This document shows positions 37,531-58,998 of a DNA stretch of 64,000 bases, piece after piece. The stretch is from contig DASZWM010000005.1 of assembly GCA_035546615.1 (NCBI GenBank), positions 1-64,000 on the forward strand, read 5' to 3'. The stretch's first letter is position 1. The number at the start of each line of letters is the position of its first letter. A program made the position numbers and the translations under genes. The notes under the pieces are model-generated. The model worked only from the letters and a program-made list of their open reading frames with translations. It was not told the origin of the DNA and did not search any database. The DNA is from Minisyncoccota bacterium (GTDB taxonomy: Bacteria > Patescibacteriota > Minisyncoccia > Phycocordibacterales > SBAW01).

Positions 37531-37603
37531 CCGCCCATAGCTCAGTCGGTAGAGCGGCTCCCTTTTAAGGAGATGGTCCTTGGTTCGAATCCAAGTGGGC
37601 GGA
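37531..37603 (+). tRNA. tRNA-Lys (anticodon TTT).
   Basis: Cloverleaf: acceptor CCGCCCA/UGGGCGG, D-arm GCUCAGUCGGUAGAGC, anticodon loop CUUUUAA, T-arm CUUGGUUCGAAUCCAAG, discriminator A. No encoded CCA. Confidence 0.85.
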
Positions 37604-37615
37604 CACGGATACTGC

Positions 37616-38569
37616 ATGAGCATATTTCCTAAAGCAAAATCTCTGATACGCAGAGGACTGGCGAGTATCGCCCGGCTCCTGCCGGCTTCGGCGCAATCCC
37701 TGCTGATTAATGTCCTTTCCGAAACCGCAGGCTCATATTCTTTGTTTCAGTCCATGGCTCGCACATATCATGTCACGGACATCCGCGTGGAGGGGAGCTA
37801 CGGCACAATCATCGGCTCTCCAGAAGATGGCGCGGTGCTTGCGGCCTATGCCCGCACCGGCGCCTGGGCGGAGGAATTCAACAGCTATTTTGGGGACTTT
37901 TTTGAAAAGAGCGGAGGCGGCACGTATATAGATATCGGAGCGAACATCGGCCTTACTACCATACCTATTGGCCGCAACGCTGCAGTTGTCTGCAAAGCGT
38001 TCGAACCCGAGCCGAGGAATTTGGCGTATCTGCAAGAGAACGTGCGGGAAAATTGTCCGGCAGGAAATGTCGAGATATTTAATACCGCTCTTTTTGACGC
38101 GAAAACCACCATCGAATTCGAGCTTGCCGAGCGCAACTTAGGCGACCACCGGATTCGCTTCAGCGGCGAGGACGGCGCATATGGGGAAAAAGGGCGTACC
38201 CAAATTGTCGTAGAGGCGGATCTGCTGGACAATGTGCTCGATCTGAAAACGCTGCCGCAGCCCATAGCGGTGAAGATAGACACGCAGGGCGCAGAGGCCC
38301 ATGTCTTTGCCGGAGGCCGCACTGTTCTCGCATCCGCCCGGCTTGTGGCCTTCGAGTTCTGGCCTTATGGTCTTGCGCGGGCGCAGGGGGACACAGCTTC
38401 CGTGCGGCGATTCTTGGAGAAGAATTTTACGGAAGGGGCCGCTGCAGCGGAATCCCAGAACGAGCCCCTGGTCTGGCAGCCAGTACGCGCTATTACGCAG
38501 CTCATGGAGGAGCTGGAGAAGGATGCGGCCAATCCGAAAGTGTACAAGAATATCTTCGTAAGAAAGTAG
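37616..38569 (+). CDS. FkbM-family methyltransferase.
   Basis: GTYIDIGANIGLTT SAM-binding motif and a KIDTQGAE catalytic-region motif typical of the FkbM family. Start taken at ATG 37616; the upstream part of the tracked ORF overlaps the tRNA. Confidence 0.65.
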   Translation: MSIFPKAKSLIRRGLASIARLLPASAQSLLINVLSETAGSYSLFQSMARTYHVTDIRVEGSYGTIIGSPEDGAVLAAYARTGAWAEEFNSYFGDFFEKSGGGTYIDIGANIGLTTIPIGRNAAVVCKAFEPEPRNLAYLQENVRENCPAGNVEIFNTALFDAKTTIEFELAERNLGDHRIRFSGEDGAYGEKGRTQIVVEADLLDNVLDLKTLPQPIAVKIDTQGAEAHVFAGGRTVLASARLVAFEFWPYGLARAQGDTASVRRFLEKNFTEGAAAAESQNEPLVWQPVRAITQLMEELEKDAANPKVYKNIFVRK

Positions 38570-42131: not shown

Positions 42132-43961
42132 ATGCGCTACTATGTATGCATGGTTCTACACCGCTCTTTGTCCGGCCTGACGTTCATCATCAGCATATTT
42201 GTATTTCTCTTCGCGCTTGCGATATTTTTTCCGCCTTCGTTCGCCAGTGCCGGAGGAGGGGGTGGGGGAAGCGGCGGGGGAGGCGCATCCTGCCCGCCGT
42301 TCGCGACGGACCCCCCTGCGGTGGCAGCTGTGCCGGGATATAAGCCTGCAGGCCCCACCCTCTACGAGATGCCGGGAAGCCTGGGATATTTCGACGCCGT
42401 CGTTCCCACCGTTGTAAAGCGGGCCTGGTACAACAAGATGCCGTCGGCCGGCGTATGTGGCGGGCAACAGATGGGCCTATGCATGACCGACAATTTTTCC
42501 GTTATCCAAGGAACGAAGATAGCGGCTCTCACCGCCTCTATGAATATCAAGCTCGGCAAGCCGGCGGCGTCGCAGGTGAGCATAGACGCTGTTACCAAGC
42601 CAATCAGCAATAACTGCGGACAAACTTCGACGCTCTGGTCGTACGTGCTTACCCCTTCGGCGGGGGACTTTACGATGAAGGTCCCCAAAGGCGTTTCGAT
42701 AGACCTGACCTACAGCTGTCAGCCGAACCAGACCTATACCTGGGAGACGCACACCAGCTGCTTTTTGGGCATCGGCAACTGCAACGTCCGGCAGCATGCG
42801 CGCTCGTTCATGTTCGCGGACCGCGCGGTAAGCAACATTCCCTCGGGCTCTTCCGGCCTTTCAGGCACCAAGACCTTCGTGCCCCAGGAAGGCACGTCCT
42901 ATTCGCTCGCCTGCGGCGGCTACCGTCCCGAGAACGGCAGCGCGACTCCTCCCACCTACGGCTCAGCGAGCAGCGCCGGAGGCGTATGCTTCCTCGGCAT
43001 CGACTGCGACAGCGGCGGCGACTTCTCCTCCTACAACGTCAAGGACTCCTCCTACCAGCAGCCCCCGCTGGCCATGTCTGTGGAGGCCTGCACCGGCGAC
43101 GACGAGGTAGTCGTCAATAACGTTTGCACCCCATGCTCGCAGGTGCTCCCGGGGAGCTGGCGCATCGAGAACATATGCGTCACTTCCTTGCCCGTGGTTT
43201 CCATTGACGCGTTCGTGAACGGAAAGTCGGTGAGCACCACGACTCCCGGCATCCCGGTTACCATACGCGCCACGTACGTTTCCACCACGTCCGACCCGAT
43301 AGCCGGCGCCGTCATCAATGGCGGGACCAAGGGCAAGGATACGCCGGCGTGCACCGGCTCGTGCATGCAGACTACCTATAGCCGCACCAAGGCCACCGCT
43401 ACCACTACGTACACATTCACGCCGAGCGCTTCGGGCGTTTTCACCTTCTATCCCTCGGTGCAGACCAAGCTGCTTGCCGCCTGGAGCAATTATGGCGATG
43501 TGTCGAAGACGCTCATCGTGGGCAACGCGTGTCCGGCTAACGCCACGCCCTCGGGCTCGAGCTGCACGTGCAACGACAAGTACTCCGCCTATATCGGCAA
43601 CGCGTGCGTGCTGACGTGCCCCGCGACCATGCATCCAAACATGAGCGGCAGCACCTGCATCGCCAACCTTCCCACGAGCGCGATGCTGGACTTCACCGCC
43701 CTGCGCGTGCGCGAAGGCGCCAGGTCCACCCTGTCATGGACGATACGAGGCATGCAGAGCGGCATCGCCTGCGACATCGCGCCGCGCGAGCTGCTTGAGA
43801 GTCCCATGCCGGCCTACCCCGGAGGCTCCACGTGGAGCGGCGCTCTCGGGACCACCCCCATCAAGGATCCCACGCGCTATACCCTGAGCTGCACCAACGG
43901 GGAGGAGACGGTTAGCAAGACAACGACCGTGCAGCTTATCCCCGAGTACCAGGAAATCTAA
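42132..43961 (+). CDS. Cys-rich secreted/surface protein, short paralog of the 45716-49552 gene.
   Basis: N-terminal hydrophobic anchor or signal (LTFIISIFVFLFALAIFFPPSFASA) and a short Gly run. Numerous Cys residues. The C-terminal ~90 aa are clearly homologous to the larger paralog (…STLSWTIRGMQSGIACDIAPRELLESPMPAYPGGSTW…YTLSCTNGEE…IPEYQEI). An alternative start is ATG 42150. Confidence 0.6.
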   Translation: MRYYVCMVLHRSLSGLTFIISIFVFLFALAIFFPPSFASAGGGGGGSGGGGASCPPFATDPPAVAAVPGYKPAGPTLYEMPGSLGYFDAVVPTVVKRAWYNKMPSAGVCGGQQMGLCMTDNFSVIQGTKIAALTASMNIKLGKPAASQVSIDAVTKPISNNCGQTSTLWSYVLTPSAGDFTMKVPKGVSIDLTYSCQPNQTYTWETHTSCFLGIGNCNVRQHARSFMFADRAVSNIPSGSSGLSGTKTFVPQEGTSYSLACGGYRPENGSATPPTYGSASSAGGVCFLGIDCDSGGDFSSYNVKDSSYQQPPLAMSVEACTGDDEVVVNNVCTPCSQVLPGSWRIENICVTSLPVVSIDAFVNGKSVSTTTPGIPVTIRATYVSTTSDPIAGAVINGGTKGKDTPACTGSCMQTTYSRTKATATTTYTFTPSASGVFTFYPSVQTKLLAAWSNYGDVSKTLIVGNACPANATPSGSSCTCNDKYSAYIGNACVLTCPATMHPNMSGSTCIANLPTSAMLDFTALRVREGARSTLSWTIRGMQSGIACDIAPRELLESPMPAYPGGSTWSGALGTTPIKDPTRYTLSCTNGEETVSKTTTVQLIPEYQEI

Positions 43962-45715: not shown

Positions 45716-48700
45716 GTGAGCTTCAAGTGCTTGAAGAAATATTTTTTTCTCCTTCCGCTGCTTGTTTTTATAGGTCCTGCGCCCTTTGTCATGGCCGCCC
45801 CCACGTTTCAAGTGGGGCCGATTTACCTCACTACGACAAGCGCGTCAAACCAAACCTGGCCCGTGCCTTCTGACTGGAACAATGCGAGCAACATCGTGCA
45901 GGTTATTGCGGCTGGAGGAGGCGGGGGCGGAGTCGCCAGCAACACGACGGGGAGCGGCGGGGGCGGCGGGGGCGGCGGATATTCAAAATCGACAAATATT
46001 ACCCTTTCCGGTTCATCGGTAACGTATCGTCTTGCGCCCGGCGGCGCCGGCGGAGGATCGTCGGCTGCGGTTGCCGGAGGCGATGCATGGTTTAACGGCA
46101 CCACATGCGCGGCTGCCTCCGTCTGCGCGAAAGGCGGAGGGGCAGGGGGCGCAGGCACAGGCGGAGGGGGAGGCGCCGCGGGCGCAGGCGGGCCGGCTAC
46201 AGGAGGAGTCGCGTCAGGCACCGGCTCAATAAAAAATAACGGCGGCGCAGGCGGGGCAGGCACAGGTGTTTCCGCCGGCGGCGGAGGGGGCGGCGCGGGC
46301 GGCCCAAACGCCGCCGGCGGGACTGGCAATCGCACCAATGGCGGGCAAGGGGACGGCACTGCAGGCGGCGCCGGCGGGATGACAAGCCTCATCAGGGCCG
46401 CGTCTGCTGGAAGCCCAGGAACTGAATTTTCATCCTCGCCCGCGTACGGGTCCGGCGGCGGCGGCGGAGGTTCTAGATACGCAGCGGACGCGGCAGCGGG
46501 AGGCACGTACGGCGCGGGCGGCGGCGGAGCTTTTGCTGCCTCCTCCGGTACCCTCCGCCGCGGAGGAGCCGGCGCTCCCGGGCTTATTGTGATTAATTAC
46601 AGCGCACCTCTTACCGTTTCCATTACCGCGCCGACCAACAGCGGCAACGCATGTATTGGCACGCCCGGTGCATTTACCATCAGCCGCAACGGGCCGGCAA
46701 CTTGGCCTGCAGTGCCGGTTGATCTTATATACGGCGGAAGCGGGAGCACCGCGGCTGCGGGGATAGACTACTCCGCTGCTGCGACAACGGTCACCATACC
46801 GGCAAATACCATGTCTATAACGCTTCCCATTACCGCGCTTCAAAAAACATCGGGCGGCAGCACTACGCTCAAGGCGACCATAGCCGCATCCTCGGCCTAT
46901 TCCGTCGGTACGCCAGCGAGCGCCACAATAGTTATTAACAATGGGACTCCGGCGATTGAGACAGTCGCCCCCTACACGATCGCTCCTTTTGCTGCTTACC
47001 CATTGCCCTACAATGGCTACATTTATCACCAAAATGGCGGTTCCGGCTACACTAATCCATTTGCCACTCCCGCAAGCATTCTTAATACATGGATCAGCAA
47101 TAGCCCTTCGCCCCAACTATGCGGCGCCAACGGCGGTACGGCCGGTATATCGCTTCCTAGTGACACGGCACAGGGCGTATGCATGGGTCCTAATTTCTCC
47201 GGCACTGTAGCAGGCACCCGGGTTGCGGTCCTGCAGGCGGTAGCGCAGACTGCAGGCATTCCTCCGGTTAATGTCGGCCTCGATCTCACGAATGTCAAAA
47301 AAACAAATCCTTGCAACACTTCAACAACGCACTGGGCGTACGCTACTGCGCCGACACAAAATACGCCCGCCGCGACGCTTAAGGTCCCTAAATACACACC
47401 GGTCCAGTTCTCTTATCAATGTTTGCCGAACCAGAATTATGTTTGGTTTAACGCCGCATGCCAAGGCGCTTACATTATTAGCTGCCTTAGCTGGACGCTT
47501 GTTACCGATGGCGACCTCAATGTCCAGACAGCGGATCGAGCGTGGTACAAGGGCACTGAAACGGCGAACCTTATCGACAGTTCTACGCAGACATTCAGCA
47601 ATTCGCAGAGCGTTACGCTCCAATGCGGCGGCTATCAGCCTCAAGAAGGGATTCCCGCAAACGGCGGTTCTCCGCCAGCTGCATCCTCCGGCACTGCTCC
47701 TACTGGAGGCAGCTACACGGTATACGGTATGCAGAATCCTTCCTATCGGCAGCCGCAAATACAAGTTGACGTACAGACATGCTCGGATCCTACCGCTATC
47801 GTACAGGGCGGTGCGTGCGTTCCGTGCAATACGGTAACTTCGGGCAGTTATCGTTCGGGTAATACCTGCGTCTTGTATCCGCCCCCGACGGCGACTATCC
47901 AAGCCAATAACGCCGGTTTTCAAGCGGCAGACAGCAGCGGCAACAAGAACGGAAAATTAGTTTCAGTTGGGGCGGGACAGCAAGTAACTGTAGCCGCCAC
48001 GTATGCTGGCAGTACCAATCAAACTCAAAAAACCGTCTTTATTACTGCCGCAGGTTCTGGCGTATGGACCGTGCCAAGCGATTGGAACAGCGCCAATAAC
48101 AGCATCGAGGTTATAGGCGGCGGCGGCACGGCGGCTTTTACGGGAGGCCGAGGCGGCGGGGGCGGCGGCGGCGCGTATTCAAAAAAGACTAATATTTCCC
48201 TCACGCCTGGCGCGCCTGTGACATATAGGGTGGGTCAAGGTGCGGCCCAAGGGAGTCCGGCCGCTCCGGGTGACGATACTTTTTTTAACCGGACCGCCGG
48301 TTCCTCAAATACCTGCGCCGATACGGTTTCGGTATGTGCCAAGGGCGGAAACAGCGGCAATGGCAACAATGGTGGAGCTGGAGGCGCTGCGAGTGGCGGC
48401 GTCGGCACTGTTAAATATTCGGGGGGCGCCGGCGCTTACGGCGATAATAACAATTCCGGCAACGGCGGCGGCGCAGGAGGTCCCAACGGGAATGGTCAAG
48501 CGGGAGACAGTGGCGGCGCAGGGGATGCGGGGCTTGGCGGCGCGGGCAGCGGTTGTGGCAACCCACCTGCGGCTGGGGGGAATGGTGCCGAGTGGATTGC
48601 TACCAATGTGTGGAGTGGCACTGCATACACGGGCGCAACGCCGACGGGCGGCTCCGGCGGGGGCGGCGGGTGCCGCTCATCCATTGCCGCTCCGGGCGGT

Positions 48701-49552
48701 AACGGCGGTTTGTATGGCGGCGGAGGCGGCTCCGGCGGAGGCAGCCAGAGCAATGAAGGAGTCGGGGCTCAGGGCATTATCGTAATCAAATATACCTCAA
48801 CCGGCGACCCTCTTGAGGCTACCGCTATCAATTGCGACTCGGGATGCGATTCACAGGACGGTGATACTGTTAACTGTAACCTTGTTGCTCCTCCCAATCC
48901 GCCGGCGGCTCCTGATCCAAACTGTTGGCGGAAACCCGATGCGACAAAGACGTATACCTTTACGCCGGCATCAGCAGACGCGGGAAAGACGTTTGTATTT
49001 TCCGCACAGGCAAAAACTTTTAACTACATCAACTATAACGGCTACGCTACCGTGCAGGTGCGGGTATGCCCGATCGGTCAGGGAACGGACGGCAACGGCG
49101 GATGTATTGCGGACGCATGCACCAACAATATCGTATTCCCAGGCAGCCAGACGACAGTACCCGCAGGATGTACGGGTAATCCGGACAATACGTGCAGCGT
49201 GCCCACCGGCTATGCGTTCAACGGCGCGGCCTGCGTCCCTTCAGCTCCGTCGGTTCCGACCCTTAGCCAAAACTCATTTACCGCCACCCGCGTACGTATG
49301 GGGGCGGCATCGACGCTTTCATGGAACATACCGGGTATGGCGAGCGGCATTACATGCGATATCAGTCCTGCGGATAAATTGCAGAGCCCGATGCCTGCCT
49401 GGACAAGCGGCTCTACTTGGATCGGCTCGGTACAGACGACCAGCATATACGGGCCCACCAAATATACGCTCACGTGCACTAACAGCACGACCGACCCGCC
49501 GGCCACCCGCAGCGTCATCGTCAACATCATCCCTGCGTATCAGGAGATATAG
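45716..49552 (+). CDS. Giant (1278 aa) secreted glycine-rich / Cys-rich surface protein with two internally duplicated Gly-rich modules and a C-terminal domain shared with the 42132 paralog.
   Basis: Signal peptide MSFKCLKKYFFLLPLLVFIGPAPFVMAAP. Module 1 (aa about 40-300) and module 2 (aa about 770-1010) both begin W(P/T)VPSDWN…IEVIGGGG…YSK(K)TNI(T/S)L…VTYR… and end …G(A/G)(P/Q)G(L/I)IVI(N/K)Y. The C-terminus …STLSWNIPGMASGITCDISPADKLQSPMPAWTSGSTW…YTLTCTN…IPAYQEI matches the paralog. Confidence 0.7.
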   Translation: MSFKCLKKYFFLLPLLVFIGPAPFVMAAPTFQVGPIYLTTTSASNQTWPVPSDWNNASNIVQVIAAGGGGGGVASNTTGSGGGGGGGGYSKSTNITLSGSSVTYRLAPGGAGGGSSAAVAGGDAWFNGTTCAAASVCAKGGGAGGAGTGGGGGAAGAGGPATGGVASGTGSIKNNGGAGGAGTGVSAGGGGGGAGGPNAAGGTGNRTNGGQGDGTAGGAGGMTSLIRAASAGSPGTEFSSSPAYGSGGGGGGSRYAADAAAGGTYGAGGGGAFAASSGTLRRGGAGAPGLIVINYSAPLTVSITAPTNSGNACIGTPGAFTISRNGPATWPAVPVDLIYGGSGSTAAAGIDYSAAATTVTIPANTMSITLPITALQKTSGGSTTLKATIAASSAYSVGTPASATIVINNGTPAIETVAPYTIAPFAAYPLPYNGYIYHQNGGSGYTNPFATPASILNTWISNSPSPQLCGANGGTAGISLPSDTAQGVCMGPNFSGTVAGTRVAVLQAVAQTAGIPPVNVGLDLTNVKKTNPCNTSTTHWAYATAPTQNTPAATLKVPKYTPVQFSYQCLPNQNYVWFNAACQGAYIISCLSWTLVTDGDLNVQTADRAWYKGTETANLIDSSTQTFSNSQSVTLQCGGYQPQEGIPANGGSPPAASSGTAPTGGSYTVYGMQNPSYRQPQIQVDVQTCSDPTAIVQGGACVPCNTVTSGSYRSGNTCVLYPPPTATIQANNAGFQAADSSGNKNGKLVSVGAGQQVTVAATYAGSTNQTQKTVFITAAGSGVWTVPSDWNSANNSIEVIGGGGTAAFTGGRGGGGGGGAYSKKTNISLTPGAPVTYRVGQGAAQGSPAAPGDDTFFNRTAGSSNTCADTVSVCAKGGNSGNGNNGGAGGAASGGVGTVKYSGGAGAYGDNNNSGNGGGAGGPNGNGQAGDSGGAGDAGLGGAGSGCGNPPAAGGNGAEWIATNVWSGTAYTGATPTGGSGGGGGCRSSIAAPGGNGGLYGGGGGSGGGSQSNEGVGAQGIIVIKYTSTGDPLEATAINCDSGCDSQDGDTVNCNLVAPPNPPAAPDPNCWRKPDATKTYTFTPASADAGKTFVFSAQAKTFNYINYNGYATVQVRVCPIGQGTDGNGGCIADACTNNIVFPGSQTTVPAGCTGNPDNTCSVPTGYAFNGAACVPSAPSVPTLSQNSFTATRVRMGAASTLSWNIPGMASGITCDISPADKLQSPMPAWTSGSTWIGSVQTTSIYGPTKYTLTCTNSTTDPPATRSVIVNIIPAYQEI

Positions 49553-51067: not shown

Positions 51068-51414
51068 GAAAAGTTTTTGCCGATGGCATTCCACGGCAGT
51101 TTCATGCCTGATTCCGGAAACTTGTCGAGAATCCATTGTACGTAAGTATTACTGTTGGGACCACGCAAGCCGTATTTCTCTTTAAAAGGATATTGATCTA
51201 CAGAAGAAGTAATACAGTCAGCCATTCGCTCCGCAGTGGAACCATCTGCACCTTCGACAGTATCTACTATTGCAGAATTCCAGTGGAAGTAATGAACAAA
51301 AGCGAATGTCTGTATCCCGTCGGTAGGGGAAAGTAAGTCTGCGTCGAGATGGCCCCAGCTTTTGTCGCGAATCTGTCGTCCGAATCCTATTTCCCAGCGT
51401 GATATAGCGCCTTT
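51061..51414 (-). pseudogene. 5'-truncated gene remnant (117 codons open, no start codon), low GC.
   Basis: Minus-strand frame is open from a TAA at 51417..51415 to a TAA at 51063..51061. It encodes a protein-like sequence (…WGHLDADLLSPTDGIQTFAFVHYFHWNSAIVDTVEGADGS…YGLRGPNSNTYVQWILDKFPESGMKLPW…) but has no ATG/GTG/TTG near its 5' end. It lies adjacent to the HNH endonuclease and tRNA-Ser. Confidence 0.35.
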
Positions 51415-51544
51415 TTATTCACGACGAACCAAGGATGGATAGCAAAGTTAAAAGGGATACAGGCAGGACATGCAAAAAGAAATACCTGATATAAGTCTTT
51501 CTTTAAGAGTTTCTGGAACTCGGCTTCGGTCATATTTCCAAACT

Positions 51545-51631
51545 TTGGCGGAGGGGGTGAGATTCGAACTCACGGTACCTTGCGGTACTCTTGTTTTCAA
51601 GACAAGTGCACTCGGCCTCTATGCGACCCCT
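51545..51631 (-). tRNA. tRNA-Ser (anticodon TGA), long variable arm, CCA encoded.
   Basis: Reverse complement: acceptor GGAGGGG/CCCCUCC, anticodon stem CUUGU/ACAAG with loop CUUGAAA, long variable arm AGUACCGCAAGGUACC, T-arm GUGAGUUCGAAUCUCAC, then G + CCA. Confidence 0.8.
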
Positions 51632-52113
51632 CCCTGGCGATTTTGTATCTTACCACTGTACCAGTTATTTTCTAGGTAATGTTCCTCTGAGTGACAATTT
51701 GGACAAAGTAGTTCCAGGTTATCCAGCGTATTGTGTTGCCGGTTTCTGTCTTTGTGATGTACGTTTAATATCTCATACCTTGCATATCCGCATCGTTCGC
51801 AAATGGGGCCTCGCAGTTTCAACAGACGAAGTTTCAAGCCTCGCTGGTATACAACTTTGTCCTTAGGCGCTCGACCTTTGTATTTTATTCCTGCACGGTT
51901 GGTATTGGCGCAGCCTCTGCTACATGTATTTTTGTTTGCACTAGAGAGAATAGGTTTACCGCAGACAACACAAGGGTGTTCTTTTCGAGTAGCTAGTCCA
52001 TAACAGGTTTGACTGCAAAATACTCGACCTTGTTTAATTTGACCCGGTCGTCTATAGATTGGTTTGCCACAAACTGTGCATGCAGTATTGGGATTTCTTT
52101 TATACTCATCCAC
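51619..52113 (-). CDS. HNH endonuclease, on a low-GC gene.
   Basis: Zn-finger-like CxxC pairs (CTVCGKP; CVVCGKP; CERCGYARY). HNH motif ILNVHHKDRNRQHNTLDNLELLCPNCH. GC is lower than the genome average. The last 13 nt overlap the 5' end of tRNA-Ser. Confidence 0.75.
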   Translation of the reverse strand: MDEYKRNPNTACTVCGKPIYRRPGQIKQGRVFCSQTCYGLATRKEHPCVVCGKPILSSANKNTCSRGCANTNRAGIKYKGRAPKDKVVYQRGLKLRLLKLRGPICERCGYARYEILNVHHKDRNRQHNTLDNLELLCPNCHSEEHYLENNWYSGKIQNRQGGVA

Positions 52114-54374: not shown

Positions 54375-54446
54375 GCCTTCGTAGCTCAACGGATAGAGCC
54401 GCGCTCTTCTAAGGCGTTGATGTAGGTTCGATTCCTACCGAAGGCA
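54375..54446 (+). tRNA. tRNA-Arg (anticodon TCT).
   Basis: Acceptor GCCUUCG/CGAAGGC, D-arm GCUCAACGGAUAGAGC, anticodon loop CUUCUAA, T-arm GUAGGUUCGAUUCCUAC, discriminator A. Confidence 0.8.
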
Positions 54447-54563
54447 CAAATAGTGCGGGGCACTATTTGTGAGCCGCAGGCGCGACGGCGCCGAGGCGGG
54501 GTCGCGGAAATTTTCAGCAGAAAATTATCTGTGACCAAATAGCGGAGAATAAGATAACAGCAC

Positions 54564-54636
54564 GGGCGATTAGCTCAGTTGGTAGAGCAACTCTTTTACA
54601 CAGAGAAGGTCACAGGTTCGAGTCCTGTATCGCCCA
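54564..54636 (+). tRNA. tRNA-Val (anticodon TAC).
   Basis: Acceptor GGGCGAU/AUCGCCC, D-arm GCUCAGUUGGUAGAGC, anticodon loop UUUACAC, T-arm ACAGGUUCGAGUCCUGU, discriminator A. Confidence 0.8.
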
Positions 54637-54640
54637 CACT

Positions 54641-55312
54641 ATGGAAGGTCCTGCCAAACCCAGTAACAACACTAAGGAAAGCTCTCCTAAGCCTTCTGTT
54701 GAAGTTGAATCAGAGTTTGCCGAATTCGTGCCACAGGACTTCCTTAATGACCCTGTAGGATATTTTGAACGTGGAGGAAAGAATATAAAAACAGGAGAAG
54801 TTAAATATGATGAGGCTGGTGCGCTTCGTGAGGATCCAACTGCTGTAAAAGATTTACCAGTCTGGACGAATAGCAATGGAATAGAAATTCTTACGGTAGG
54901 AAGAAGGGTAAATACGATTAAGGGCGCTGTAGGAGAATCAGGAGATCCTTTCTACGAGTACAAAATCCTTGAGAAGCTTATGGAAATCGGGTTACCCGCT
55001 GCGAGGCCTATTGCGAAAGCAGAACAGGGCGGTACTCATATCATTGTCATGGAGCGTATTCCGGGGGTTAGGTGGTCTGAAAGAGAAAGTCTGAATCTCA
55101 AAGAAAAAGGATACTCTGACGAAGACATTGCAACTCTAATAAGTGAAGCAGAACAGAAAATGGATGGCCTGAAAACTCGCTTTGACGAAGCGGGAGTTAT
55201 TCGCAGTTGGAAACTGAAGGATATGGTATTTGAGATAGACATTGAGAATAAGAAAGTTATTTCTATAGTCCCCACAGATTGGGAAAGGACGAAGATTATT
55301 GAAAAGCAATAG
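54641..55312 (+). CDS. Hypothetical protein with weak protein-kinase-like-fold features, on a low-GC gene starting 5 nt after tRNA-Val.
   Basis: Hinge-like THIIVMERIPG and C-terminal SWKLKDMVFEIDIENKKVISIVPTDWE resemble small Kdo/RIO-type kinase-like proteins. Lower GC than the flanks. 223 aa. Confidence 0.4.
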   Translation: MEGPAKPSNNTKESSPKPSVEVESEFAEFVPQDFLNDPVGYFERGGKNIKTGEVKYDEAGALREDPTAVKDLPVWTNSNGIEILTVGRRVNTIKGAVGESGDPFYEYKILEKLMEIGLPAARPIAKAEQGGTHIIVMERIPGVRWSERESLNLKEKGYSDEDIATLISEAEQKMDGLKTRFDEAGVIRSWKLKDMVFEIDIENKKVISIVPTDWERTKIIEKQ

Positions 55313-55381
55313 AGGTTCTAATATCGTGTACTTCTGACCACAGAAGACGTCTTTATTCAAGTCTTGTGCTATAACACTTCC

Positions 55382-56978: not shown

Positions 56979-57007
56979 TTGACAAAGTACCCGAAAGGGT
57001 ATACACT
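56979..57007 (+). promoter_or_regulatory. Sigma70-like promoter heading a leader of about 330 nt upstream of the TerC-family gene.
   Basis: TTGACA (56979-56984), 17-nt spacer, TACACT (57002-57007). The downstream 57010-57340 has no convincing ORF but several stable hairpins, including a terminator-like ggcccccc…gggggcc-ttttt at 57268-57315. Confidence 0.35.
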
Positions 57008-57340
57008 ATACTTAGTTGTGAGGGAGCCAGCCTACGGTGTGTCATCGTGCACCGAAGGTGGGACCGGAAAGTGGCAACCTCGCGCCGGGACGATCGCAAA
57101 AGTCCCTTCTGTTCTTTCAGCGCGGAACGCGCAACGTGGTCTACTGTTTAGATGGTCTTGGGTCGCGAGGAGGTCAAAAATAACCCGCGACACTGCAAAA
57201 GTGATTGGCAATCTCAATCATGAAGGACCGTCACACGTAAGAATGGAAAAACCAAGGTCCTCGGACCAGTGGCCCCCCAGCACAACTGCATTGACAGTTG
57301 AGTGGGGGCCTTTTTACATTCAATGTAGTATTCTGTAACA

Positions 57341-58386: not shown

Positions 58387-58460
58387 GGTGGTCGTAGCTC
58401 AATCGGTAGAGCCCTGGTTTGTGGTACCAGTTGTTGTGGGTTCGAGTCCCATCGACCACC
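58387..58460 (+). tRNA. tRNA-His (anticodon GTG) with genomically encoded G-1 and C73 discriminator.
   Basis: G-1 + acceptor GUGGUCG/CGACCAC, D-arm GCUCAAUCGGUAGAGC, anticodon stem CUGGU/ACCAG with loop UUGUGGU, T-arm GUGGGUUCGAGUCCCAU, C73. Confidence 0.8.
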
Positions 58461-58464
58461 CAAG

Positions 58465-58998
58465 ATGGAGGAATTTAAAAAATCTAAGGAAGCCGCGACA
58501 AGGAGCCTCAACCTTGCCGGCACTTTGCAGAAGCTTTTTCGCCCTGTCCTGATTAAAGGCATGGAGGGCGAAAAAACAGAGGATCCGATAGCTCGAGTAA
58601 TAGCGGAAGCAGGCCCTAAAAACCTAAGCGATATAGAATCGTATCTTACAGCGCAGAGCATTGATGCCCTTGCTCCTCTTGAGCACGGCTATGGCTTTAG
58701 TGCCGTAGTGCTTGACGCAGGCGATCGGGTGGTGCGCTTAAGCAGACTGAAGCCTACGCATAAACCCGGTATTCCCCTTGTCCTCCAGCCTCTTGCGGAG
58801 GAAATAGTGGGAAAAATTTCTGTGCAGATCTTCAAAAAGCTTCAGACGGCGGGAATTACGGACGCCGATGTACAGAATGTTAAGGACCAATTGGGGATGG
58901 AAGGGTATAGGTGGGATGACGCCGGTACCGACAACCTTGGGCGGGACGAGAACGGCCAACTTTTTATACTCGACGGTTCGGTGCATACACTCGCATGA
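58465..58998 (+). CDS. Hypothetical protein with protein-kinase-like catalytic-loop features, on a lower-GC gene starting 4 nt after tRNA-His.
   Basis: Gly-rich loop-like GYGFSAVVLDAG…VVRLSR, and catalytic-loop/DFG-like GYRWDDAGTDNLGRDENGQLFILDGSV. 177 aa. Confidence 0.4.
   Translation: MEEFKKSKEAATRSLNLAGTLQKLFRPVLIKGMEGEKTEDPIARVIAEAGPKNLSDIESYLTAQSIDALAPLEHGYGFSAVVLDAGDRVVRLSRLKPTHKPGIPLVLQPLAEEIVGKISVQIFKKLQTAGITDADVQNVKDQLGMEGYRWDDAGTDNLGRDENGQLFILDGSVHTLA

Follow-up and report, generated by a model that had tools for sequence, protein, structure and literature searches.

Two genes with predicted kinase-like folds but no C-terminal lobe lie directly behind tRNA genes in a Paceibacterota contig

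A 64,000-nt stretch of a metagenome-assembled contig of Candidatus Paceibacterota (Patescibacteria/candidate phyla radiation; DASZWM010000005.1, positions 1 to 64,000, hereafter the window) carries two small open reading frames, ORF1 and ORF2, each of which begins 4 nt behind a tRNA gene and encodes a protein predicted to adopt a kinase-like fold that ends before the C-terminal lobe (C-lobe). On balance we favor the reading that ORF1 and ORF2 are separate, horizontally acquired accessory genes for C-lobe-less kinase-like proteins, that they occupy slots behind tRNA genes and that they would be expressed through the tRNA transcripts. The best-supported description of the two products is that of accessory nucleotide-binding enzymes, most likely phosphate-transferring, of the mobile-element effector kind; they may act as kinases with a role in conflict or as effectors.

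Homologs of both ORFs, together with a start codon that is conserved in the ORF1 family, argue that ORF1 and ORF2 are real genes, and identical proteins are on record as the hypothetical proteins VHD55_02420 and VHD55_02450, respectively. The initial annotation of this DNA had placed both genes directly after tRNA genes and had quoted several peptide strings. Every string was found in the translations, and each ORF does begin 4 nt past the discriminator base of its tRNA when the Rfam ends are used (3 nt with the ARAGORN ends; Table 1). The 4-nt spacers are too short for a promoter, and the CACT spacer in front of ORF1 is also too short for a ribosome-binding site.

AlphaFold2 run with the family alignments gave confident models of kinase shape for ORF1 (predicted local distance difference test (pLDDT) 88.3, predicted template modeling score (pTM) 0.82) and ORF2 (pLDDT 87.5, pTM 0.80), which bears out the kinase-like fold proposed in the initial annotation. 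The bilobal core of protein-kinase-like (PKL) folds is present, with an N-lobe beta-sheet and helix C, a hinge, a catalytic loop and a DFG-type metal-binding strand. Both models stop a few residues past the DFG-equivalent strand and the C-lobe helices are missing, so that the predicted layout of both proteins is an N-lobe, a hinge, one long helix, a catalytic loop and a DFG-type strand, and then the end. Known kinases and kinase-like enzymes figured in the fold comparison of both models (Table 2), and a Foldseek search against viral structures returned serine/threonine kinases as well. In RIO1/RIO2, Bud32, Kdo kinase/WaaP, aminoglycoside phosphotransferase (APH) and TkArkI (~200-250 aa), the metal-binding loop is followed by C-lobe helices in every case; ORF1 and ORF2 end at that point.

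In ORF2, the residues D152-x4-N157-x12-D170-G171 stand at exact kinase spacing, as the initial annotation had suspected from a block resembling a catalytic loop and DFG region. They are invariant among the 11 close homologs in a 12-sequence alignment; in a wider alignment of 54 sequences D152 and D170 are at least 90% conserved and N157 falls below that level. ORF2 also has a conserved LQ108P motif, and its catalytic loop is without His. With its catalytic Asp, Asn and metal-binding Asp in place, ORF2 is most likely an active ATP-dependent phosphotransferase. The candidate active-site residues of ORF1 are K94, E106 in helix C, M137-E138 in the hinge, R188, D194, D200 and D213, and of these K94, E106, M137-E138, D194, D200 and D213 show no or almost no variation across the family alignment.

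The closest published counterparts are the kinases that Iyer et al. (2017; PMC5512222) described in polyvalent proteins, in which the C-terminal subdomain is lost altogether and the active site retained; they occur in stand-alone versions too and were predicted to modify host proteins in conflicts between mobile elements and their hosts. ORF1 and ORF2 share the loss of the C-terminal subdomain in their models, and the ORF2 family shares both the embedding in polyvalent proteins and the stand-alone copies. ORF2 itself has 12 close homologs, and a search with its profile across 1.84 billion cluster representatives returned 501 clusters at E <= 1e-3; many of these matches form a domain inside proteins of 1000-5487 aa. 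In a Pfam scan of eight such large proteins, one architecture combined ArdcN, MPTase-PolyVal, the ORF2-type domain, DUF5710 and Toprim_3; SLT, KfrB, DUF3363, Zeta_toxin and a weak ART-PolyVal match were further partners in this set. The ORF2-type domain itself matched no Pfam model in ORF2 or in these eight carriers. By tblastn, the domain turned up, at 37% identity over 93-98% of ORF2, on 109 plasmids of Burkholderia, including 94 conjugative ones. The single plasmid record inspected has it within a 698-aa protein labelled 'zeta toxin family protein', and a TraG gene lies ~1.6 kb away in that stretch. ORF2 is a free-standing version of this domain, which is usually found inside polyvalent proteins, some of them encoded on conjugative plasmids.

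For the ORF1 family, the likeness to the Iyer kinases extends to one fusion with an ART-PolyVal ADP-ribosyltransferase (E = 1.8e-13), plus a coiled coil, in a protein of 693 aa (L043:44-2125; L and P numbers denote the loci and proteins compared), and to one protein (P0050) with a C-terminal 'LYHGT' domain that weakly matches DUF6886. Other members carry extensions: L032 and L037 have a common ~300-aa extension of no known family and L010 has an N-terminal one of ~340 aa. The published signatures of the class are a Glu preceding strand 2, a Gln within the final strand of the N-lobe and an insert that separates the His from the Asp of the catalytic loop (PMC5512222). ORF1 has E64 before the strand at 69-71, Q129 in the strand at 123-129 and, in R188...D194, a possible His-to-Arg change plus insert. 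There are differences as well. The published group comes mainly from Verrucomicrobia-Chlamydia and Bacteroidetes (pro)phages (PMC5512222), whereas here the hosts are Patescibacteria, joined by Burkholderia plasmids in the case of ORF2 relatives; the catalytic loop of ORF2 is without His; ORF1, ORF2 and 54 ORF2 relatives have no Pfam match bar a weak one to ABC1; and no relationship between ORF1 and ORF2 is detectable. Compared by the published description, ORF2 would work like this class, an analogy that stops short of claiming proven membership.

The absence of detectable paralogy speaks against the initial annotation, in which the two ORFs were a related pair. ORF1 and ORF2 matched by BLASTP at E = 0.047 in a single comparison, and hhalign gave their family profiles a probability of 0.9%, or 1.6% with the ORF2 alignment widened to 54 distant members (<=2% in both cases). 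ORF1-sized proteins among the ORF2-profile matches proved to be ORF2-like, and paralogy was dropped. ORF2 homologs are preceded by genes for products of 234-245 aa; these were considered as ORF1 relatives and ruled out, as they are not ORF1-like.

The ORF1 family is large. More than 256 homologs at 45-79% identity were found in Paceibacterota and Patescibacteria metagenome-assembled genomes, none with a Pfam domain, and an alignment of 36 sequences showed 34 invariant residues and a conserved start. The family is Patescibacteria-specific and highly conserved, yet mobile within genomes. We fetched 56 genome loci and asked for 53 homologs whether a tRNA gene lies on the same strand within 250 nt upstream; this was so for 22/53 ORF1 homologs versus 3/251 other genes of the same loci (odds ratio 59, Fisher p = 4e-16). 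The upstream tRNAs cover at least eight identities, including Ser (4 anticodons), Ala, Ile, Trp, His and, in the window, Val, and in two further loci tRNA-Asp and tRNA-Leu genes lie 300-470 nt from the ORF1 homolog. The gap between tRNA and gene is 2 nt in L013, 4 nt in the window, 26-43 nt in others and up to ~200 nt. The habit of following tRNA genes is strong in this family and previously undescribed; a literature search found no description of either family or of tRNA-linked cassettes in Patescibacteria. For ORF2 the linkage to tRNA-His recurs in one of six other contexts, namely in L103, its closest homolog, which lies 71 nt past tRNA-His(gtg); L057/58, L060, L101 and L102 do not show it and L059 is uninformative.

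Comparison of orthologous tRNA loci showed that the slots held by both genes, immediately 3' of tRNA genes, are variable. L068 has the same gene order as the window over YqgF, CsaA, tRNA-Arg(tct), tRNA-Val(tac), RluA, L19 and tRNA-Leu(gag), and its tRNA-Val-RluA interval holds a terminator and an unrelated 315-aa gene, with no ORF1. In L042, the order RluA-L19-tRNA-Leu(gag)...tRNA-His is followed by an ORF1 homolog where the window carries ORF2. The check that the initial annotation had proposed at these loci thus found the ORFs absent or swapped in relatives. Genes flanking ORF1 homologs almost never match between loci, and synteny is not conserved. We also examined whether the tRNA-Val locus of the window is the tRNA-Ala locus of L001/L018 after an anticodon shift, and rejected this, with G3:U70 in the tRNA-Ala versus G3:C70 in the tRNA-Val and with different upstream genes.

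Base composition sets the two genes apart. The window has a GC content of 0.568, and its long ORFs have a mean GC at third codon positions (GC3) of 0.66 (sd 0.12, 5th percentile 0.45). ORF1, with GC 0.426 and GC3 0.366, is a strong compositional outlier and ORF2, with GC 0.509 and GC3 0.517, a mild one; the initial annotation had called both AT-richer than their surroundings, which is clear for ORF1 and only mildly so for ORF2. Across the ORF1 family, the GC of the gene follows the GC of its flanks with a slope of just 0.39, the genes being at ~0.43 in hosts at 0.29-0.48 and at 0.33-0.43 in hosts at 0.55-0.60. In one clade, the ORF1 homolog lies in a discrete ~810-bp cassette, with nucleotide similarity from ~-35 to ~+100 around the gene; L004 and L007 are 91% identical over the segment from -35 to +103 while their flanks have a GC of 0.48 versus 0.32, and the L007 cassette has no upstream tRNA. 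The suspected mobility is consistent with these data, as both the composition and the distribution of ORF1 are typical of a horizontally moving gene.

The position of the genes suggests how they might be expressed. A motif like the Shine-Dalgarno (SD) sequence precedes 5/51 window genes, and a TANNNT box ends 4-10 nt before the ATG in 18/53 window genes versus 6% of random positions, with peaks at 6 and 8 nt. The scarcity of SD motifs and the frequent TANNNT box just before the ATG indicate that the organism leans largely on leaderless mRNAs. Four of the eight window tRNAs have a start codon within 12 nt downstream, the other two such gaps being 11 nt after tRNA-Lys, in front of an FkbM methyltransferase gene, and 12 nt after tRNA-Ser(tga), in front of a DUF3750 gene. 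Since a 4-nt spacer lacks room for a promoter, ORF1 and ORF2 would be transcribed together with their tRNAs, read from the tRNA promoter as a tRNA-mRNA transcript. Where a tRNA gene, like these two, does not encode the CCA, the 3' end is made by an RNase Z-type cut that falls behind the discriminator base. Such a cut would free an mRNA beginning 5'-CACU-AUG for ORF1 or 5'-CAAG-AUG for ORF2, which would be effectively leaderless and ready for translation. To our knowledge, tRNA 3' processing is not an established bacterial route to translatable leaderless mRNAs. RNase Z does release RNAs co-transcribed with tRNAs, as for tRNA-snoRNA in Nanoarchaeum, plants and T. kodakarensis (PMC4247193), and in mitochondria tRNA excision sets the end of the adjacent RNA and yields leaderless mRNAs (PMC12242768). 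The same mechanism is proposed here for the tRNA-Val/ORF1 and tRNA-His/ORF2 junctions, on the basis of the 4-nt spacing and the leaderless, SD-free style of the genome.

Several observations weigh against the reading we favor. Curated kinase hidden Markov models (HMMs) in Pfam and NCBIfam match neither ORF1 nor ORF2. Scans of Pfam, NCBIfam, PHROG and PADLOC produced no model matching either, the profiles that the initial annotation had named (Pkinase, RIO1, Kdo and APH), as well as ABC1, found neither even at E <= 10, and HMMs of minimal or atypical kinases had no match. ABC1 was touched by 2/54 ORF2 relatives, weakly (best E = 3.6e-4). HMM searches of both family profiles against Protein Data Bank (PDB) sequences gave noise only, save for a weak N-lobe-only match of the widened ORF2 profile to TkArkI (E = 0.018), the best PDB sequence match. 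Tblastn with ORF1 against phage and plasmid collections found nothing, and neither did tblastn with ORF2 against the phage collection. ORF1 homologs at <=58% identity lie mostly inside ordinary operons with no tRNA. ORF2 is well built into an operon of the host and did not arrive recently, because its stop codon overlaps the start of zwf, which implies translational coupling of zwf to ORF2, and because its composition is just mildly unusual. The genes read near both ORFs (49.5-61 kb) include no integrase or recombinase, and the last 19 nt of tRNA-Val or tRNA-His have no second copy (<=3 mismatches) in the window. Co-transcription with the tRNAs and the position of the RNA cut are inferred from the sequence. 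Finally, the canonical HRD-Asp position of ORF1 aligns with G/S189 (R188-G/S189-W190-K191) and not with an Asp; an alternative mapping through R188, an insert, D194, D200 (+6) and D213 (+13) is plausible.

Because the active site of ORF1 is atypical, the protein may be a divergent kinase or a mere nucleotide binder. It is possible, if the less likely case, that ORF1 is a pseudokinase or nucleotide-binding scaffold whose conservation reflects a binding interface. The Gly or Ser at the catalytic Asp position would fit this, as would a conserved REDPTAVKD in place of the Gly-rich loop and a peak of conservation in the N-terminal segment 30-80, outside the kinase core. It is countered by the (nearly) invariant D194, D200 and D213, of which D200 and D213 are 13 apart like the kinase Asn and DFG Asp, and by the invariant K94 and E106, which fit the Lys-Glu pair that binds ATP. 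R188...D194 could also be the insert between His and Asp described for polyvalent-protein kinases (PMC5512222).

A somewhat more doubtful alternative is that both genes are remnant cargo of integrase-driven islands inserted at tRNA 3' ends, whose integrase and attachment (att) repeats have since decayed; the initial annotation had likewise seen them as cargo of a tRNA-integrating element. Relatives offer some support. In L011 and L015, the stretch that separates the ORF1 homolog from the tRNA contains att-like duplications of the tRNA-Ser 3' end, and homologous large serine recombinase genes lie close to cassettes at L061/L072, L021, L083 and L088. The one in L061 (1237-2852, on the contig shared with L072) encodes 521 aa with Resolvase, Recombinase and Zn_ribbon_recom domains, overlaps a tRNA-Ser ~400 nt downstream of the ORF1-homolog cassette and is followed by helix-turn-helix (HTH) and RadC/methylase genes. 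A low-GC gene, the frameshifted DUF3750 gene, also stands behind tRNA-Ser(tga) in the window. Tycheposons at tRNAs of streamlined genomes are a precedent; their defining marks are hallmark replication genes plus a site-specific integrase, and their usual size is 10-20 kb (Hackl et al., bioRxiv 10.1101/2020.12.28.424599). The genes considered here resemble them in being exchanged cargo beside tRNAs of streamlined genomes, with partial tRNA repeats in some relatives, and differ in being single ~0.7-0.8-kb genes with no linked integrase in the window. Against island remnants, the units are single ~0.7-kb genes, the neighborhood lacks both an integrase and a tRNA 3'-end repeat as stated above, ORF2 is coupled to zwf, and recombinases lie by just ~4 of ~90 loci. 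The window contains no relevant direct repeats, and the L061 serine recombinase had no tblastn match in it. Of the earlier claims, mobility and a link to tRNA genes are supported for ORF1. ORF1 and ORF2 can be placed, as a variant, with two known kinds, the C-lobe-less kinases of mobile elements and the accessory genes at tRNA loci.

We consider it improbable that tRNA is the substrate of these proteins, for instance through a 2'-OH kinase activity like that of archaeal ArkI, with adjacency serving co-expression with the substrate; a tRNA-directed function is speculation. TkArkI is the top PDB sequence match of the ORF2-family profile, and the ORF1 family is strongly linked to tRNA genes. ArkI, too, is without the HRD Asp, having an HGQ catalytic loop, along with a DFE metal loop and C-terminal helices whose YKR motif is tied to RNA binding (PMC9095486). 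However, the similarity to ArkI is marginal and no better than to many protein kinases, and neither ORF has any C-lobe helices, the ones with the YKR motif included. ORF2 relatives occur in polyvalent proteins with peptidase, ArdC and zeta-toxin domains, some on conjugative plasmids, the identity of the upstream tRNA varies widely and distant ORF1 homologs have no tRNA. The view that these are ordinary lineage core genes beside tRNAs by chance, which a very compact genome (4/8 tRNAs with a nearby start codon) and the high conservation of ORF1 might suggest, is largely refuted and very improbable given the tRNA association (Fisher p = 4e-16), the lack of conserved synteny, the other gene in the orthologous slot of L068, the outlying GC3 and the just 12 close homologs of ORF2.

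Returning to horizontally acquired genes in tRNA slots, the relatives point to a broader possibility that we put forward tentatively, as less likely than not: in Paceibacteria, single-gene cassettes that tend to lie 3' of tRNAs, with no linked integrase, would swap accessory genes across GC-divergent hosts, with derived tRNA-fused cases and with conflict or effector kinases among the cargo. A conserved ~100-nt tail was found after the stop codon of many unrelated small genes, sampled from L002:2960-4600, L003, L004, L005, L007, L011, L014, L061-L065 and 34 metagenome contigs (L066-L099). Its consensus reads ...GACCCACATACCTC ... AAAATACCCTTACGGTGCCTCACC.CTCTGGTACTKAACCC(ACA/GAG)TRGCCCGC, and a ~14-nt core, GACCC(ACA/GAG)T(A/G)CC, occurs at both tail ends and once more at the gene start. 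The tail-bearing cargo includes nucleoside deoxyribosyltransferase-like and adenylosuccinate-synthetase-like proteins, S66 peptidase, HIT and GNAT proteins, methyltransferases, membrane proteins and ORF1 homologs, often 20-91 nt past a tRNA-Ser. L002 has two tail cassettes in tandem, and in some cargo genes the core codes for the C-terminus (DPHTS, DPSTS). Neither leader nor tail matched Rfam, and RNAalifold on 27 tails gave no convincing structure (-1.9 kcal/mol, 6 pairs). The 38-nt cassette leader had been considered as a regulatory hairpin and was reread as a -10 box TAGTAT with an alternative leaderless start giving MTHMPQN-MEKF. A cassette would be built of a -10 box with a leaderless start, one ORF and the conserved tail with its repeated core, and its cargo would include C-lobe-less kinases. 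In derived cases like the window, the gene would be fused to the tRNA transcript and tRNA 3' processing would make the leaderless mRNA. Cassette kinases might conceivably target the translation apparatus.

The neighborhood of the two genes is listed in Table 1. The TAAGAT box in front of tRNA-Val is not listed by the consensus promoter scan, which also demands a -35 element. At the hairpin between ORF1 and RluA, the flank AGGTTCTAATATC...TGACCAC is common to the window and L001. The DUF3750 gene has a GC of 0.43 and is broken by a frameshift, either as a pseudogene or through an assembly error; with the frames joined it matches Pfam DUF3750 at E = 3e-20. The HNH endonuclease gene next to it is of foreign composition (GC3 0.358), and its homolog in L014 lies immediately upstream of a tRNA-Ser(tga) and an ORF1 homolog. 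Given this arrangement, the ORF1 family may once have stood behind tRNA-Ser(tga) in the lineage of the window too. The FkbM-family methyltransferase gene has host-like GC. Neither family has left a remnant in the 563-nt gap behind tRNA-Leu(gag). The interval from the tRNA-Leu(gag) terminator to the TerC gene holds a promoter-like site, followed by ~330 nt of GC-rich non-coding sequence that folds better than shuffled sequence (z = -2.9); no Rfam family matched it at E <= 10, including the Mn2+ riboswitch usual for TerC genes. Elsewhere in the window, two very large Gly-rich proteins of 609 and 1278 aa have a closely similar ~90-aa C-terminal region, ending in IPEYQEI or IPAYQEI, and look like paralogous surface proteins.

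Table 1. Features of the window discussed in the text (positions within the 64,000-nt stretch).
Feature	Position	Strand	Remarks
FkbM-family methyltransferase gene	37531-38569		ATG at 37616, 11 nt past tRNA-Lys(ttt)
Gly-rich protein gene	42132-43961		609 aa
Gly-rich protein gene	45716-49552		1278 aa
DUF3750 gene	51070-51533	-	begins 12 nt after tRNA-Ser(tga)
tRNA-Ser(tga)	51546-51633	-	
HNH endonuclease gene	51619-52113	-	15-nt overlap with the 5' end of tRNA-Ser(tga)
tRNA-Arg(tct)	54375..54447	+	opens the tRNA cluster upstream of ORF1; ARAGORN; Rfam tRNA model 67.7 bits
TAAGAT, possible -10 box	54550..54555	+	8 nt 5' of tRNA-Val; candidate tRNA-Val/ORF1 promoter, picked by eye
tRNA-Val(tac), CCA not encoded	54564..54636	+	Rfam 71.2 bits; ARAGORN end 54637
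Spacer CACT, 4 nt	54637..54640	+	tRNA-Val discriminator base to ORF1 ATG; from the sequence
ORF1, 223 aa, predicted kinase-like fold without C-terminal lobe	54641..55312	+	ATG start; Patescibacteria-specific family
Weak terminator-like hairpin, CTTCTG-ACCA-CAGAAG then ACGTCTTTAT	55331..55356	+	between ORF1 and RluA; terminator scan
Promoter-like TTGACA-17-TACACT	56979-57007		between tRNA-Leu(gag) terminator and TerC gene
Region with promoter-like site and non-coding sequence	56979-57340		
tRNA-His(gtg), CCA not encoded	58388..58460	+	Rfam 64.5 bits; ARAGORN end 58461
Spacer CAAG, 4 nt	58461..58464	+	tRNA-His to ORF2 ATG; from the sequence
ORF2, 177 aa, predicted kinase-like fold without C-terminal lobe	58465..58998	+	ATG start
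ATGA, zwf start inside ORF2 stop codon	58995-58998		

Table 2. Fold comparison of the AlphaFold2 models.
Model	Score by structure	Range	Number
ORF1	PknB 10.4, WaaP 9.7, Rio1 9.5, Bud32 9.4, APH 8.6, TkArkI 8.2	130-155	29
ORF2	CaMKI 7.8, TkArkI 7.3, Rio1 7.2, APH 7.1	110-130	28

With ORF1, a large, highly conserved and uncharacterised protein family of Patescibacteria is now defined, and with ORF2 a kinase-like fold is assigned to a widespread polyvalent-protein domain that is unannotated and recognised by no Pfam model. The points of most interest are the proposed origin of leaderless mRNAs in tRNA processing and the single-gene cassettes of relatives. If the former is true, tRNA maturation can make translatable mRNA 5' ends in a bacterium with leaderless translation, as it does in mitochondria. 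A route of single-gene exchange in reduced genomes is suggested by how the genes recur behind many different tRNAs, taken with the discrete cassettes of relatives.

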